From positions 1 to 38,862 of the forward strand of contig PXUB01000040.1 of assembly GCA_003009755.1 (NCBI GenBank): DNA of 38,862 bases, given 5' to 3'. The DNA comes from Thermoplasmatales archaeon SW_10_69_26. Its GTDB lineage: Archaea > Thermoplasmatota > SW-10-69-26. The notes beneath the pieces are model-generated. The model was not told the DNA's origin and made no database searches. It saw only the letters and a list, made by a program, of their open reading frames with translations. The translations under genes and the position numbers were made by a program. Of the stretch, positions 917 to 35,347 are shown piece by piece (the stretch's first letter is position 1; the number at the start of each line of letters is the position of its first letter).

Positions 917-1978
917 ATGGCAACGAGAACGCAGGCACGCGTCGCCCCCTGGAAGAAGCAAGAGGTGCAGGAGCTCGTCGACCTCCTGCGCGAGCACTCC
1001 GTCGTCGGCGTGGCTCGCATCGACAGCCTGCCCAGCCAGCAGTTCCAGGAGGTCCGCGCCACGGTTCGCGATCAGGCCCAGATCCGCGTCGGTCGCAACT
1101 CGCTGATCGAGCGAGCGATCGACGAGCTCGAGGATGAGAGGGACGACCTCGCGGACATCAAGCCGTTCATCAGCGGCCAAACGGCCCTCATCCTCTCCAA
1201 CGAGAACCCCTTCAACCTGTTCACGACGGTCGAGGAATCCAAGCAGAACGCGCCTGCCAACCCGGGCGACGTTGCCCCCAAGGACATCTGGGTCGAGGAA
1301 GGCGACACGCCCTTCGACCCCGGTCCCGTGGTCGGCGACCTGCAGAAGGCCGGGCTGCCCGCCAAGATCGAGGGCGGCAAGGTCGTGATCTCGGAGGACG
1401 AGCTCGTCGCCGAGGAAGGCGACGAGATCGGCGCCGATCTCGCCGACGCTCTCAGCCGGCTCGAGATCCACCCCATGATCGTCGGGCTGGATCTCCGCGC
1501 CGTCTGGGAAGAGGGCACGGTCTTCGACCGCGACACCCTCGACGTCGATCAGGAAGCCTTCGTCGACGACCTGGGCGCCGCCCACGGCCGCGCTCGCGCG
1601 CTCGCCGTCGAGGTGGCCTACCCGGCGGCTTCGGTCCTACCGGAGCTCGTCTCGTCCTCGGCAGCCGAGGCCCGCAGCCTCGCGCTCGAGGCCGAGTACC
1701 CCGCCTCCGACATCGTGGACGAGATCCTCGCCCGCGGCCACTCCCAAGCGCTGGCCCTCGCCGGCCAGCTGCCGGACGAGGCGCTCAGCGAGGACGTCCA
1801 GGACCAGCTCGGGGCCCAACAGGCCCAGCCCACCCCCGAGCCCGACACTGAGGACGAGGACGACACCGAGGCCGAGGAGGCCGAAGACGAAGACGACGAC
1901 GAGGGCGAGGGCGAGGGCGAGGGCGAGGAGGTCTCCGAGGAGGAGGCCGCCGAAGGGCTGGGCGAGATGTTCGGCTGA
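917..1978 (+). CDS. rpl10: 50S ribosomal protein L10/P0 (uL10)
   Basis: VAPWKKQEV and GDTPFDPGPVVGDLQ motifs, acidic tail ending EGLGEMFG. ATG 917 follows GAGGTG SD. Confidence 0.96.
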   Translation: MATRTQARVAPWKKQEVQELVDLLREHSVVGVARIDSLPSQQFQEVRATVRDQAQIRVGRNSLIERAIDELEDERDDLADIKPFISGQTALILSNENPFNLFTTVEESKQNAPANPGDVAPKDIWVEEGDTPFDPGPVVGDLQKAGLPAKIEGGKVVISEDELVAEEGDEIGADLADALSRLEIHPMIVGLDLRAVWEEGTVFDRDTLDVDQEAFVDDLGAAHGRARALAVEVAYPAASVLPELVSSSAAEARSLALEAEYPASDIVDEILARGHSQALALAGQLPDEALSEDVQDQLGAQQAQPTPEPDTEDEDDTEAEEAEDEDDDEGEGEGEGEEVSEEEAAEGLGEMFG

Positions 1979-2005
1979 CGATCAACAATCACGGAGGAAC
2001 ACACA

Positions 2006-2350
2006 ATGGAGTATGTCTACGCTGCACTGTTGCTGAACGCGTCCGGTCAGGACGTCGACGAGGACGGGATCACCGAGATCCTCGAAGCCGCTGGCACCGA
2101 CGTGGACGAGTCCCGCGTCAAGGCGCTCGTGTCCGCCCTCGACGGCGTCGACATCGAGAACGCCATCCAGTCCGCGGCCGTCTCCGCGCAGGCTGCCCCC
2201 GCCGCCGGTGGCGGCGGGGGCGCGGCCGAGGCTGCCGAGGCCGACGAGGCCGAGGAAGCCGAGGAGGCCGAGGGGGCCGAGGAAGACGAAGAAGAGGAGG
2301 ACGTCTCCGAGGAGGAGGCGGCCGAGGGCCTCGGCGAGCTGTTCGGCTGA
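2006..2350 (+). CDS. rpl12: 50S ribosomal stalk protein L12 (aP1)
   Basis: MEYVYAALLL start, Ala-rich hinge, EGLGELFG C-terminus; GGAGG SD. Confidence 0.97.
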   Translation: MEYVYAALLLNASGQDVDEDGITEILEAAGTDVDESRVKALVSALDGVDIENAIQSAAVSAQAAPAAGGGGGAAEAAEADEAEEAEEAEGAEEDEEEEDVSEEEAAEGLGELFG

Positions 2351-33099: not shown

Positions 33100-34002
33100 T
33101 CAGCCCTGTTCGTCGAGCCAGTCCCAGACGCCGCGCGTGTTCATCCGCACCTCGTGGCGGAACGTGGCCTCGTCGTAGACCTCGAGCCCGGCGTCGTACT
33201 CCTTCATCAACCGCTGCACGGTCTCGTCGAAGGGGTGGCCCTCCGCGCGCAGCTCGCGGATGCGGTCGACCCAGGCCTCGAGGTCGCCCCGGAAGGTTGC
33301 CAGGTGGGCACCGTCGACGACGTTGAAGTGCGTCAAGGCCACGTGATCGGGCTCCAGGGCCTCCAGCTCGTCGAGCGTGTCCCGCCAGGCTTCGAGATCG
33401 AAGGCCGGCGGCGGGGTCGTCATCAGCAACGGTCTCCCCTCGCAACGGATGCCGGCGGCGTCGCCCACGTAGAGGACGCTGGCCTCCAGGTCGAACACGT
33501 TGTACTGGTGGGGGGCGTGCCCGGGCGCGTCGACGAGCTCGAGTTCGCGGCCGCCGAAGGCGACGGTCTCGCCGCCCGCGATCGAGCGCGTCCGGTCGAC
33601 GTCGATCGGTTGCAAGGTCCCGTACTGGGGGAACCGCTCGCTGCCGACGGCCGCCTCGACGGAGGTCATCAGCTTGCCCACGAGCTCGGGGTCGGTGAGG
33701 AACGCGATCCCGTTCTCGTGGATGTGAGCCCTCGCGTTCGGGCACTCCTCCAACAGGCGCCAAGTCGCCCCCGCGTGGTCGAGGTGGATGTGCGTGGGCA
33801 GGATGTCGGTCACGTCCTCCGGCGAGAAGCCCTGCTCCTCGATCGCGTCGAACACGCGATCCACGGTCACGCTGGGTCCGGTGTCCACGATCGCGAGCTC
33901 GTCCTCGCCCGGCAGGAGGAAGAACCCGCAGTAGCCCTCCATCGAGAACCCGCCTGTGTCGTACAGGTAGGCGGGGCCCGGCAGCTTGCGCTCGGCAGGC
34001 AT
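33100..34002 (-). CDS. MBL-fold metallo-hydrolase
   Basis: VDTGP, THIHLDHAG, APGHAPH, GDAAG, LTHF; TTTAT box at 34029-34033 on the minus strand. Confidence 0.92.
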   Translation of the reverse strand: MPAERKLPGPAYLYDTGGFSMEGYCGFFLLPGEDELAIVDTGPSVTVDRVFDAIEEQGFSPEDVTDILPTHIHLDHAGATWRLLEECPNARAHIHENGIAFLTDPELVGKLMTSVEAAVGSERFPQYGTLQPIDVDRTRSIAGGETVAFGGRELELVDAPGHAPHQYNVFDLEASVLYVGDAAGIRCEGRPLLMTTPPPAFDLEAWRDTLDELEALEPDHVALTHFNVVDGAHLATFRGDLEAWVDRIRELRAEGHPFDETVQRLMKEYDAGLEVYDEATFRHEVRMNTRGVWDWLDEQG

Positions 34003-34088
34003 CGCGCCCGCCAGTGCGGACGCGCAGGATAAAGAATGCGGGGGTCGCGACACGACGAGGACGCCGGGCGAGCAACCTGCGACCGGCC

Positions 34089-34440
34089 GTTCGAGACCCC
34101 TCGCGGTCGCGGGGGGGTTCGACGATCCGCCCGGATCGGAGATCCGGGCTCACGTCACGAACAAGCCTGTCTGCCTACTCCCACTCGACCGCGAGGATTC
34201 GGCCCTCAGCCAGGAACCCTCGCGATTCGGACGAACCGACCGTTATCCGCCGGTTCGTACTCTCGAGCGGGAGTTCGCTGGCGCTCACTCCCACTCGACG
34301 GTTCCCGGCGGCTTGTTCTGCGGTTCGAGACCCTCGCTTCGCTCGGGTCTCGAGTTTCGCCTGAATCAGAGATTCGGGCTCACGTCACGAACAAGCCGCC
34401 TACTCCCATTCTACGGTTCCCGGCGGCTTGTTCGTGACGT
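34089..34440. mobile_element. Tandem miniature integrated elements / att scars at the guaAB 3' end
   Basis: Gene-end copies at 34400-34433, 34285-34318 (30/34) and 34175-34189. 29-bp direct repeat 34139-34167 / 34369-34397 (28/29). Perfect 19-bp inverted repeat 34382-34400 / 34422-34440. Several hairpins. Confidence 0.7.
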
Positions 34441-35347
34441 CGTACACGACCCGGTTGACGTGGTCGCCGAGCTGGTTCGTGATACGCGTGCTGATCGAAT
34501 CCAGCACGTCGAGGGGGACCTCGCTGAACGAGGCCGTCATGCCGTCGAGGCTGTCGACGGCGCGGACGGCGATCGTCTCGCCGTAGGCGCGCACGTCGCC
34601 CTGGACGCCGACCGATTGGACGGGGAGCAGCGCGGCGTAGTACTGCCAGGGCCGCTGCATCTTGCCCTCCTCGGCAGCCTGCTCGAGCTCCTCCTCGACG
34701 ATCGCGCACGCCTCGCGCGTGACGTCGACGCGCTCGGGCGTGACCTCGCCCAGCGTGCGGATCGCCAGGCCCGGACCCGGGAACGGTTGGCGCTCGGCGA
34801 CGGGCAGATCGAAGTGACGGGCGACCTCGCGGACCTCGTCCTTGTACAGGTCGTACAGCGGCTCGACGACCTCGAGATCCATCTTCTCCGGCAGGCCACC
34901 AACGTTGTGGTGGCTTTTGATCGTGTCGCGCGTCTCGTCGCCGGACTCGATCCAGTCGGGCGCGATCGTGCCTTGGACGAGGTACTCGGCCTCGAGGCCC
35001 TCGGCCTCCTCCTCGAAGACGCGGATGAACTCCTCGCCGACGACGTTGCGCTTCTCCTCGGGGTCCGTGACGCCCTCGAGCGCGTCGAAGAACCGATCGC
35101 GGGCGTCGACGAAGTCCAGCTCGATCCCCATGTCCTCGAAGATGCGCTCGACCTGCTGGGGCTCGTCCTTGCGCATCAGGCCGGTGTCGACGAAGACCGC
35201 GGTCAGGTGCTGGGGTACCGCCTTGCCGGCCAGCACGGCCGCCACCGTGGAGTCCACGCCACCAGAGCAGGCGATGATCGCGGGACCGTCGACGATCTGT
35301 TGGATCTGCTCGACCTGCTCTTTCACGAAGGCCTCGGGGTCGACCAT
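34400..35347 (-). CDS. guaAB: GMP synthase subunit B (ATP pyrophosphatase)
   Basis: SGGVDS PP-loop, [49 protein letters not shown]; no GATase domain (archaeal split form). Confidence 0.96.

Follow-up and report, generated by a model that had tools for sequence, protein, structure and literature searches.

The DNA behind guaAB, the gene for GMP synthase subunit B, in the archaeon Thermoplasmatales archaeon SW_10_69_26 carries a stack of small hairpin-only units that are separated by spare copies of the gene's own 3′ end. The stack lies in the window, by which we mean the whole 38,862-nucleotide stretch analysed here, contig C40 (PXUB01000040.1) of a metagenome-assembled genome (MAG) of 2.8 Mb with 69% G+C, 49 contigs and 95% completeness (G000; C-numbers denote its contigs, G-numbers the genomes of relatives and L-numbers the guaAB loci in relatives). 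The sequencing runs in which this DNA occurs are metagenomes of halite. The stack is real, was built in layers at the gene end from gene-less cassettes, and varies between strains. As to how it grew, the account that we favour, at somewhat less than an even chance, is that recombination by the host piled gene-less hairpin cassettes onto a conserved gene end.

A sequence-only reading of this DNA, made by a model from the letters without database searches, had claimed that the last guaAB codons occur three times in a row, and this claim withstood a quantitative check. We searched the window with the 15-mer GTCGAGTGGGAGTAG, allowing up to two mismatches, and observed three matches, all on the minus strand (34175-34189, 34285-34299 and 34400-34414), where 0.21 were expected and none of 100 shuffles gave three; the stop codons of the three ends are at 34400, 34285 and 34175. 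Their start-to-start distances are 115 and 110 nt, in line with the ~110-115 nt read earlier. The live end, copy A, and the next one, copy B, form a 37-nt repeat with 89% identity (34282-34318 / 34397-34433), inside which the exact 21-mer noted before is indeed present (34298-34318 / 34413-34433). Two further repeats that had been pointed out were also recovered: a 29-nt block, identical at 28 of 29 positions (34139-34167 / 34369-34397) and extending to 40 nt at 90%, and the hairpin arm GTTCGAGACCC, found at 34086-34099 and again at 34320-34333. Codon by codon, all the differences among the three ends are synonymous, as had been stated.

Read in the sense of the gene, with S for the guaAB gene end and S′ for an inverted copy of S, the parts come in the order gene - S - loop - S′ - hairpins - S - loop - S′ - hairpins - S - old tail. 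The three gene ends enclose two units made of hairpins only, 115 and 110 nt long, with an older hairpin tail behind them, and the whole stack is contained in the ~350-nt spacer between guaAB and the next gene. The features, all on the minus strand, are as follows.

34400-35347: guaAB (GMP synthase subunit B), coding sequence; open reading frame (ORF) with Pfam GMP_synt_C at E = 7.9e-35, stop TAG at 34400-34402
34422-34440: arm x, 19 coding nt (V T N K P P), the 5′ arm of the gene-end hairpin, 100% complementary to x′
34401-34421: loop y(A), 21 nt, the live last codons GGG AAC(C) GTA GAA TGG GAG TA
34382-34400: arm x′, inverted copy of x beginning with the final base of the stop codon; 19-nt perfect inverted repeat
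34319-34381: body of unit 1, from the fold: GAGC, h1 (34360-34378), CGAAAC, H2 (34325-34353, loop CGAGCGAAGCGAG), ACCGCA
34282-34318: copy B, 12 nt of arm x followed by GTC GAG TGG GAG, stop TGA at 34285-34287
34190-34281: body of unit 2: loop GAGCGCCAGCGA, inverted gene end (34263-34274), GAGT, h2 (34231-34258), CCGAAT, H3 (34190-34224)
34173-34189: copy C, GTC GAG TGG GAG TAG plus GC, stop at 34175-34177
34086-34172: older tail, homologous to the tail of unit 1: second x′ (34152-34167), GAGC, h1′ (34130-34148), H2′ (~34091-34122)
33100-34005: next gene, metallo-beta-lactamase-fold protein; Pfam Lactamase_B at E = 1e-26

The 19-bp perfect inverted repeat (34382-34400 / 34422-34440), which the earlier reading had overlooked, joins coding sequence to the DNA directly after the stop. 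As arms x and x′ pair across the guaAB end, the stop codon falls in the 21-nt loop. This stem is the joint-longest perfect hairpin stem of the genome. Copy B doubles as the 5′ arm of a second hairpin, the 3′ arm of which is the inverted gene end. In the tail, a second x′ of 16 nt is 100% complementary to the coding arm 257 nt off. The tail aligns with that of unit 1 over 40 nt at 90%, plus the repeated GTTCGAGACCC arm, and h1 and h1′ differ by one compensatory change, G-C to A-T. As single-stranded DNA, the 371-nt stretch folds at −113.1 kcal/mol (z = −7.9; equally good shuffles 0/100). The units hold no ORF except chance frames, an Rfam search of 33500-35000 returned four chance-level matches (E ≥ 3.8) and no family, and a tRNA scan of the window found no tRNA.

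The hairpins themselves have counterparts elsewhere in the genome. H2 of unit 1 is one of 17 genomic h-type hairpins (loop CGAGC-N-GCGAG), a type found 3 and 5 times in the controls; most of the stems are unique. An exact 21-mer of H2 recurs at C48:7974-7994, behind tRNA-Asn. The body of unit 2 has relatives at C15:20356-20420 (76% over 66 nt, E = 5.5e-7) and also on C8, C38, C32, C9 and elsewhere.

We also came across a repeat of ~115 nt (GGCGGATCCTCGCGAGAGT - CCGGATCTTCGATCCGG - GCGAACC ... GCCGGCAGTCTAG) with at least eight copies in the genome (C1:1-115, C4:1-116, C20:1-115, C29:77830-77945, near C14:16700-16830, C41:38690-38810 and C11:18250-18370). It breaks the assembly at contig ends and adjoins the stop codon of an opposite-strand gene. 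It includes a CCGGATC-NNN-GATCCGG hairpin, which recurs as h1′ of the guaAB tail.

Next, we compared spare and live ends codon by codon. In 33 comparisons of a copy with its live end, from ten guaAB loci and nine genes of this genome, 50 differing codons were synonymous and 40 non-synonymous, where 21% synonymous is expected if changes are random (binomial P = 4e-13, with comparisons within one locus not being independent of each other). Many of the non-synonymous codons stand at repeat edges, where the walk-back overshoots, and the clean cases gave 4/0, 5/1, 5/0, 5/1 and 3/0 synonymous/non-synonymous codons, with 2/0 twice at this locus. Because the differences are synonymous both here and in the relatives, the spare ends look like former or alternative coding ends; either they have evolved as coding sequence, or diverged alleles have replaced the live end. 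The AT-ending codons of the live end had been read as if an incoming element had supplied them. Four halite metagenome runs (X2-X5), which come from a study other than the probable source and whose contigs were matched to the locus at 85% likeness, all carry C at 34409 and 34412 (4/4 runs), that is GTG GAG. The GTA GAA codons are therefore two private transitions of this strain, and since they are limited to it the codon argument for a foreign origin fails.

The same runs contain block-wise variants of the stack. A contig of X4 passes directly from 34176 to 34287 (7 shared letters; side 32) and so lacks 110 nt and with them unit 2, and one X2 contig skips 61 nt (34317 to 34379; side 50), so that the hairpin body of unit 1 is gone and the order direct - inverted - direct is kept. 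Contig depth over 34315-34375 is 0.24-3.3 in X2-X5 and ~5 alongside, and such depth holes were not counted as standalone evidence. Block-wise strain variants thus exist, their frequency being outside the reach of single short contigs. These contig joints, and two relatives described below (L092 vs L097), bear out the suggestion that units are gained and lost as blocks between strains.

A genome that is a MAG of 49 contigs, with strain variants at exactly the stack, raises the question of an assembly artefact, namely a repeat-induced mis-join of strain variants. Contigs other than those of the assembly speak against it. The Logan contigs of the probable source run contain 0.97 of the sampled words, X4 and X5 contigs span 34007/34029-34317 and with it copy B, unit 2, copy C and the tail, and an X2 contig joins copy A to copy B. 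The same architecture is, moreover, found in other genomes, and we hold an artefact to be extremely unlikely.

Next, we looked at the guaAB ends of relatives. Counting this genome, 7 of the 19 class genomes with a readable gene end hold two to four hairpin-separated copies of it (this genome, G003, G007, G009, G014, G018 and G020), whereas no copies were seen in 11 genomes that belong to other classes of the phylum. A second, named set had copies at 4 of 66 guaAB loci, with 0/0/0 in three controls. The repeat lengths are 15, 16, 22-24, 34-37 and 63 nt across lineages, and the hairpin contents differ by lineage. G003, which belongs to another genus (74% protein identity), likewise has three copies in this order and the corresponding 19-bp stem spanning the stop. 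Between the two genomes, 19 of 19 pairs are conserved, with four changed on both sides and none one-sided, a co-variation that rests on two sequences and has a weak shuffle control (35/500). In G003 the direct repeat sits in the loop and has no overlap with the stem. What the inverted copy behind the stop complements is gene sequence beyond the direct repeat, and its changes follow those of the local gene in these two genera, so local templating or selection fits better than an imported cassette.

The closest relatives (85% and 82% protein identity; L010 and L011) have no stack and a single gene-end copy, and they share, as does L043, the same metallo-beta-lactamase-fold neighbour after a short spacer. 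The related MAGs at L092 and L097 have the first 195 nt past the gene in common and then diverge exactly inside a gene-end copy, and L015, L024 and L027 contain identical tandem units. In the comparison of relatives proposed earlier, the closest ones are candidate empty sites, and copy numbers vary among the others; no integrase-bearing island at guaAB was seen among them. A metagenome scan with the exact 21-mer gave one chance match within an unrelated ORF (L039) and no same-species contig. In a viral scan with a degenerate guaA end, the three matches proved to be ordinary guaA ends at contig or provirus borders, at 47-56% G+C and with no relation to the present lineage, and were rejected.

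Two relatives showed further detail behind guaAB. At L030 (G012), ~182 nt behind the gene to the contig end contain three GGAATGA/GGGATGA motifs, each followed by a small hairpin, and a 14-nt tandem repeat GCTCATTCCGCGTA that continues to the contig end. At L021 (G020), 133-220 nt behind the gene, the second gene-end copy is 63 nt long (21 codons), and the hairpins preceding it have GAA triloops of the GCGAAGC type.

These data bear on whether the region could be a functional multi-hairpin 3′ region that grew in place by tandem duplication or slippage, under selection as a terminator, a 3′-end signal or a tRNA-like processing signal, with no outside DNA involved. The very strong fold (z = −7.9), the compensatory changes, both those that separate the genera in the 19-bp stem and the one that separates h1 from h1′, the three copies of G003 in the same order, and the identical tandem units of L015, L024 and L027 would all fit. 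However, decaying copies should gain non-synonymous changes, and the clean cases are almost purely synonymous; the units differ in content and are not mutual copies of each other; sister strains lack unit bodies; no stack exists in the two closest relatives (85%, 82%); and there is no Rfam family match. We regard growth in place as unlikely.

The layout is not peculiar to guaAB. From a crude gene call with 1741 confident frames, we tested 1719 protein-gene ends for a copy of the last 15 nt (≤2 mismatches) within 400 nt downstream and found 13, against 2, 4, 1, 0 and 3 in five permuted controls. About 10 of the 13 look genuine on inspection: the stop lies in the loop of a hairpin, and the end recurs in direct orientation past at least one hairpin. 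The gene at C19:44956 has six end copies, and long recoded copies are present at a TFB-like end (16 codons) and a cox3-like end (10 codons), both identities being read by eye. A match at 1978 in the window was rejected, as it comes from two ribosomal stalk-type genes with a common C-terminus and not from a duplicated gene end. These adjacent acidic genes (window 1940-2340) end in ...EEAAEGLGEMFG and ...EEAAEGLGELFG, the usual tail of ribosomal stalk proteins. With copies in 7/19 class genomes as against 13/1719 protein-gene ends of this genome, the view of guaAB as a hotspot is upheld.

The tRNA genes are affected as well. Of the 42 canonical tRNAs, 16 have 12 nt or more of their 3′ end repeated exactly within 450 nt downstream, with 1 such case upstream and 1, 0, 0, 0 and 0 in permuted controls. 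Inverted copies within 90 nt were likewise seen at 16/42, and direct plus inverted copies at 10/42. Ten single tRNA-linked units align as one family, in which the inverted segment fits the local tRNA, even for TTCGAAT vs TTCAAAT. The order of the unit is trailer, inverted T-arm and acceptor part, small GAACC/GGTTC hairpin, long variable hairpin, GAGAG, h-type hairpin (loop CGAGC-N-GCGAG), CG.AATCC, and the tRNA end again. A profile of these ten units has 34 genome matches at E < 0.01, 10 of them the training units, and with nhmmer gives no match in 34080-34440 at E ≤ 10. The guaAB units thus share the order and the h-type hairpin with the tRNA units but fall outside their sequence family. The string GGATGAGAACC-N-GGTTCG is found eight times in this genome, once in G003 and in none of the other 19 class genomes, so the sequence family is narrow.

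From these results we concluded that the guaAB stack is one instance of a lineage-wide process that favours tRNA genes and a few very conserved protein-gene ends. The idea of an attachment system specific to guaAB is accordingly given up, since the same layout recurs genome-wide behind tRNAs and other genes. A genome-wide GAG/CGAATC linker grammar was dropped as a general claim: a CGAATC-like flank is 2.8-fold enriched at hairpins (31/610 vs 90/5000), whereas a GAG flank shows no enrichment (103/610 vs 735/5000). We also discarded a count of the triple pattern (75 vs 12), which is inflated by tandem hairpin arrays.

Two smaller observations belong to these units. The trailer after the tRNA 3′ end often opens with a conserved motif, TTCTCC or TTCTCG (for example C2:33132, C3:293, C27:15536, C47:53377 and C19:72383). 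T-loop-like strings (GGTTCA, GATTCGGAACC, GTTCGTC, GGTCGAATGG) stand at or just before the left repeat edge in several protein genes (C19:44956, C38:49284, C22:44964, C6:563 and guaAB of L034), a pattern noticed post hoc.

Next, we asked which enzymes could serve such sites. The genome has three matches to the tyrosine recombinase domain (PF00589), all in islands at tRNA genes, as listed here.

C2:33058-37680: island at tRNA-Gly(CCC), with a tyrosine recombinase gene
C2:33474-33929: tyrosine recombinase
C19:58919-72742: island at tRNA-Phe, with a tyrosine recombinase gene
C19:59113-59667: tyrosine recombinase
C1:107700-123009: island at tRNA-Glu(CTC), with a tyrosine recombinase gene
C1:122312-122803: tyrosine recombinase

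The three islands are flanked by 13-16-nt repeats of the tRNA end. Because these repeats begin inside the T-stem, and the island ends were without hairpin modules in a comparison of the island repeats, the islands are not simply large versions of the mini-units. The contig of the window has zero Phage_integrase (PF00589) matches, in agreement with the earlier statement that no integrase lies in cis. We tested 155 ORFs (≥230 aa) that lie behind guaAB in relatives, 76 of them at a threshold of 1e-5 and 79 at 1e-8, and none is an integrase; the three integrases of this genome, used as tblastn queries on 103 guaAB loci, had no match. Of the polar stack proposed by the sequence-only reading, the discrete gene-less units bounded by gene-end copies stand, whereas its integrase-driven integration lacks a linked recombinase.

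At the far ends of the three tRNA islands we noticed stacks of hairpin units. The Gly island is bracketed by a repeat of ~85-100 nt that comprises the tRNA end, its inverted copy and a hairpin.

The earlier reading had also offered collapsed islands as an origin. Deletion scars of islands at bacterial guaA are known, and this genome does have real islands at three tRNA genes, so that one may think of the units as scars of large integrase-bearing islands deleted down to their ends. No island at guaAB turned up in any relative examined, neither in the 19 class genomes nor at 66 further loci, the units are uniformly small and built of the genome's own hairpin modules, and the real island ends look different. 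An origin by collapse is thus very improbable.

Other mobile classes were considered and set aside. The 95% complete genome has no match to Y1_Tnp (PF01797), hence no RAYT as would go with repetitive extragenic palindromic (REP) sequences, bacterial interspersed mosaic elements (BIMEs) or REPINs; none to RVT_1 (PF00078), the reverse transcriptase of retroelements or diversity-generating retroelements; none to Cas1 (PF01867), as for a casposon, an element whose insertion duplicates 14-15 bp at gene 3′ ends; and none to the TnpB domain. With these genes absent from the genome, the casposon, retroelement, TnpB and RAYT readings were rejected. A miniature inverted-repeat transposable element does not fit either, as the inverted segments are local target copies, different at every locus, and the duplications are 12-63 nt long and not short and fixed; nor does an integron cassette array, with no recombinase nearby and units without ORFs. 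The genome has three IS110-type matches, the visible end of which differs from the hairpin module. A pair of this family (C3:88268-89666 and C2:62080-63482) is 85% identical, and both members are cut by contig ends.

A recombinase may nevertheless act in trans. The units could be, much as the sequence-only reading had proposed, non-autonomous mini-attachment (mini-att) cassettes, inserted site-specifically at conserved gene ends by an enzyme from a tRNA island, a virus or a plasmid; the sites could be the GAGTGGGA region in guaAB and the T-loop in tRNAs. The reaction might proceed on a single strand, at a folded site in which the gene-end copy pairs with its inverted copy, and each time it might create a new live end and push the old one downstream. 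We take this to be a serious possibility, though one that we would rather bet against. It would agree with the hotspot behaviour of tRNA genes and guaAB, with the recoded spare ends and with the loss of units as whole blocks, but the targets to be served would number more than 25 different sequences. At tRNAs it would produce a left edge constantly in the T-loop and a stereotyped unit; at guaAB, however, the repeat length ranges from 15 to 63 nt, cassette contents are unrelated across lineages, and the tRNA-unit profile misses the guaAB units. By our own derivation, the order S - loop - S′ - body - S is expected from the insertion of a circle with a hairpin att site, with the repeat edge in the stem. 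Yet the inverted segment fits the local gene outside the repeat and co-varies with it, and the G003 repeat has no stem overlap at all.

As for the enzyme, all three copies here hold GAGTGGGA or GAATGGGA, the core named for guaA integration. GIsul2 of bacterial guaA uses GAGTGGGA as its core site, and a non-autonomous unit, CR2-sul2, is moved in trans (PMC9376610). Folded single-strand att sites are likewise described for integrons (PMC4792948). The three tyrosine recombinases in tRNA islands with 13-16-nt tRNA-end repeats would be candidates, but none is tied to guaAB at 103 loci or among the 155 downstream ORFs, and the repeats of the real islands begin in the T-stem with no hairpin modules at the island ends. 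In its boldest form, which we consider doubtful, the proposal would make the units the smallest integrative elements yet seen. They would be gene-less, 60-120 nt long, with a hairpin attachment site and a recombinase in trans, and would target T-loop-like sequences and conserved protein-gene ends, with each insertion renewing the gene end and so building polar stacks; this would be a cargo-free archaeal counterpart of integron attC/CTX-type integration.

Host-driven accretion, the reading that we prefer, would dispense with a dedicated enzyme. The stack would have grown by repeated target-duplicating recombination within the last 15-35 nt of guaAB, each event pushing the previous gene end, still readable in codons, downstream and leaving the gene-adjacent copy in use. 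The cassettes, with neither genes nor an enzyme, would be assembled from hairpin modules that circulate in the genome, such as the h-type. The driver would be the replication and recombination machinery of the host: template switching may write the perfect inverted copy of the local gene end and thereby the 19-bp stem; recombination that is guided by microhomology or facilitated by homology, together with unequal crossing-over among gene-end repeats, may add, remove and exchange units; and allelic recombination with diverged strains may recode the live end. Ends under strong conservation (those of tRNA genes, of guaAB and of others, among them the TFB-like and cox3-like ones identified by eye) would be hotspots as the best anchors for recombination between diverged strains, and they may also mimic the linkers of cassette arrays (T-loop ~ CGAATC, TCGAGTGGGAG ~ TCGAGAG). 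We infer the order of events, the enzymes and the role of the hairpins, which may stabilise or terminate the transcript 3′ end. What inclines us to host machinery is that the inverted copy follows the local gene beyond the limits of the direct repeat, that the stems are perfect and unique, the contents lineage-specific and no enzyme seen, and that recoding is what allelic recombination between diverged strains would give. The variable guaAB repeat lengths (15-63 nt) are, besides, unlike a fixed att core, and insertions with long target duplication in the absence of mobility genes have a published precedent (PMC2853133).

Several observations weigh against the host-driven account. The tRNA units have a fixed order and a uniform size, a regularity that suggests a site-specific reaction more than illegitimate recombination unless microhomology explains it, and their direct repeat always begins in the T-loop (positions 11-15 of the last 30 nt). 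guaAB is affected ~40 times more often than the average protein gene, and the common core GAGTGGGA is a proven integrase site in bacteria. In every case checked by eye, the left edge of the direct repeat is a few nucleotides inside the 5′ arm of the hairpin, a position that the folded-att model roughly predicts and the host model does not. The linker-mimicry idea is post hoc, with a 2.8-fold enrichment for the CGAATC-like flank and none for GAG. Finally, the strain data come from individual short contigs, matched at 85% likeness, whose sides measure 32 and 50 letters.

How do these units compare with known systems? REP sequences, BIMEs and REPINs of bacteria are extragenic hairpin mosaics that go with RAYT transposases. 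The stacks share with REP/BIME the hairpin mosaics with short linkers after genes, the variable copy number and the co-varying stems, and differ in having no Y1/RAYT, locus-specific stems that can copy the neighbouring gene end, and duplicated gene ends. Behind tyrT of E. coli lie 178-bp repeats (rtT), each of which opens with the 3′ end of that tRNA. These too are tandem units behind a tRNA gene that carry its 3′ end, but they are confined to one locus and have neither an inverted copy nor a family of hairpin modules. CIMEs are cis-mobilizable remnants of integrative elements, att-flanked, kilobases long and with a recognisable parent element. Like them, the guaAB units are non-autonomous, bounded by copies of a gene 3′ end and stacked by accretion at one site; unlike them, they are without a visible parent element and are not kilobases long. 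Insertion with long target duplication is said to have been described by Nobusato in 2000, and the attP of CTX phage is a folded single-strand attachment site.

Such insertions with long target duplication and without mobility genes have also been described by Furuta in 2010 (PMC2853133). Direct repeats longer and more variable than transposon duplications, the lack of a mobility gene, frequent overlap with a gene 3′ end and an obscure mechanism recall the present case, in which we found a 37-nt A/B repeat, no mobility gene and a single copy in the closest genera. The cases described there are bacterial and carry restriction-modification genes (PMC2853133), whereas here a hairpin cassette is accompanied by an inverted target. 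For GIsul2/CR2-sul2, the likeness lies in the target, the last GMP synthase codons, in the GAGTGGGA core within the copies, and in att-like copies in a row (attL/attLR/attR) with an integrase-less unit between them (PMC9376610). The present units, in contrast, are 110-115 nt long, consist of hairpins only and are free of cargo, and the search for an integrase of this site found none; they reside in an archaeon whose guaA is split, and each unit adds an inverted target copy. The hairpin made of site and inverted site, the order site-loop-inverted site-body-site and the cassette arrays are reminiscent of CTX attP and of integron attC (PMC4792948, PMC5027507). What differs is that there is here no IntI/attI platform, the cassettes are gene-less, the targets are many, and the G003 repeat sits in the loop. 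None of the nearest described systems combines a gene-less hairpin unit with direct and inverted target copies at many conserved ends. We found no description for archaeal guaAB in a literature search that was narrow and not aimed directly at this question.

Among conserved gene ends, those of tRNA genes and guaA are where islands and phages classically integrate. In this genome these very ends gather tiny gene-less hairpin blocks, with the target duplicated in direct and inverted form, and more than one third of the tRNA genes are affected. Either way, the arrays are strain markers, and they call for caution in annotation, as spare gene or tRNA ends may be mistaken for split or pseudo genes. 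If a recombinase is responsible, the units would be minimal integrative elements of an undescribed kind and would offer a handle on a new archaeal recombination system. If instead host replication and recombination built them, they would be a natural record of how perfect hairpins and long target duplications arise, and would show the swapping of gene ends between strains of polyploid, recombining archaea.

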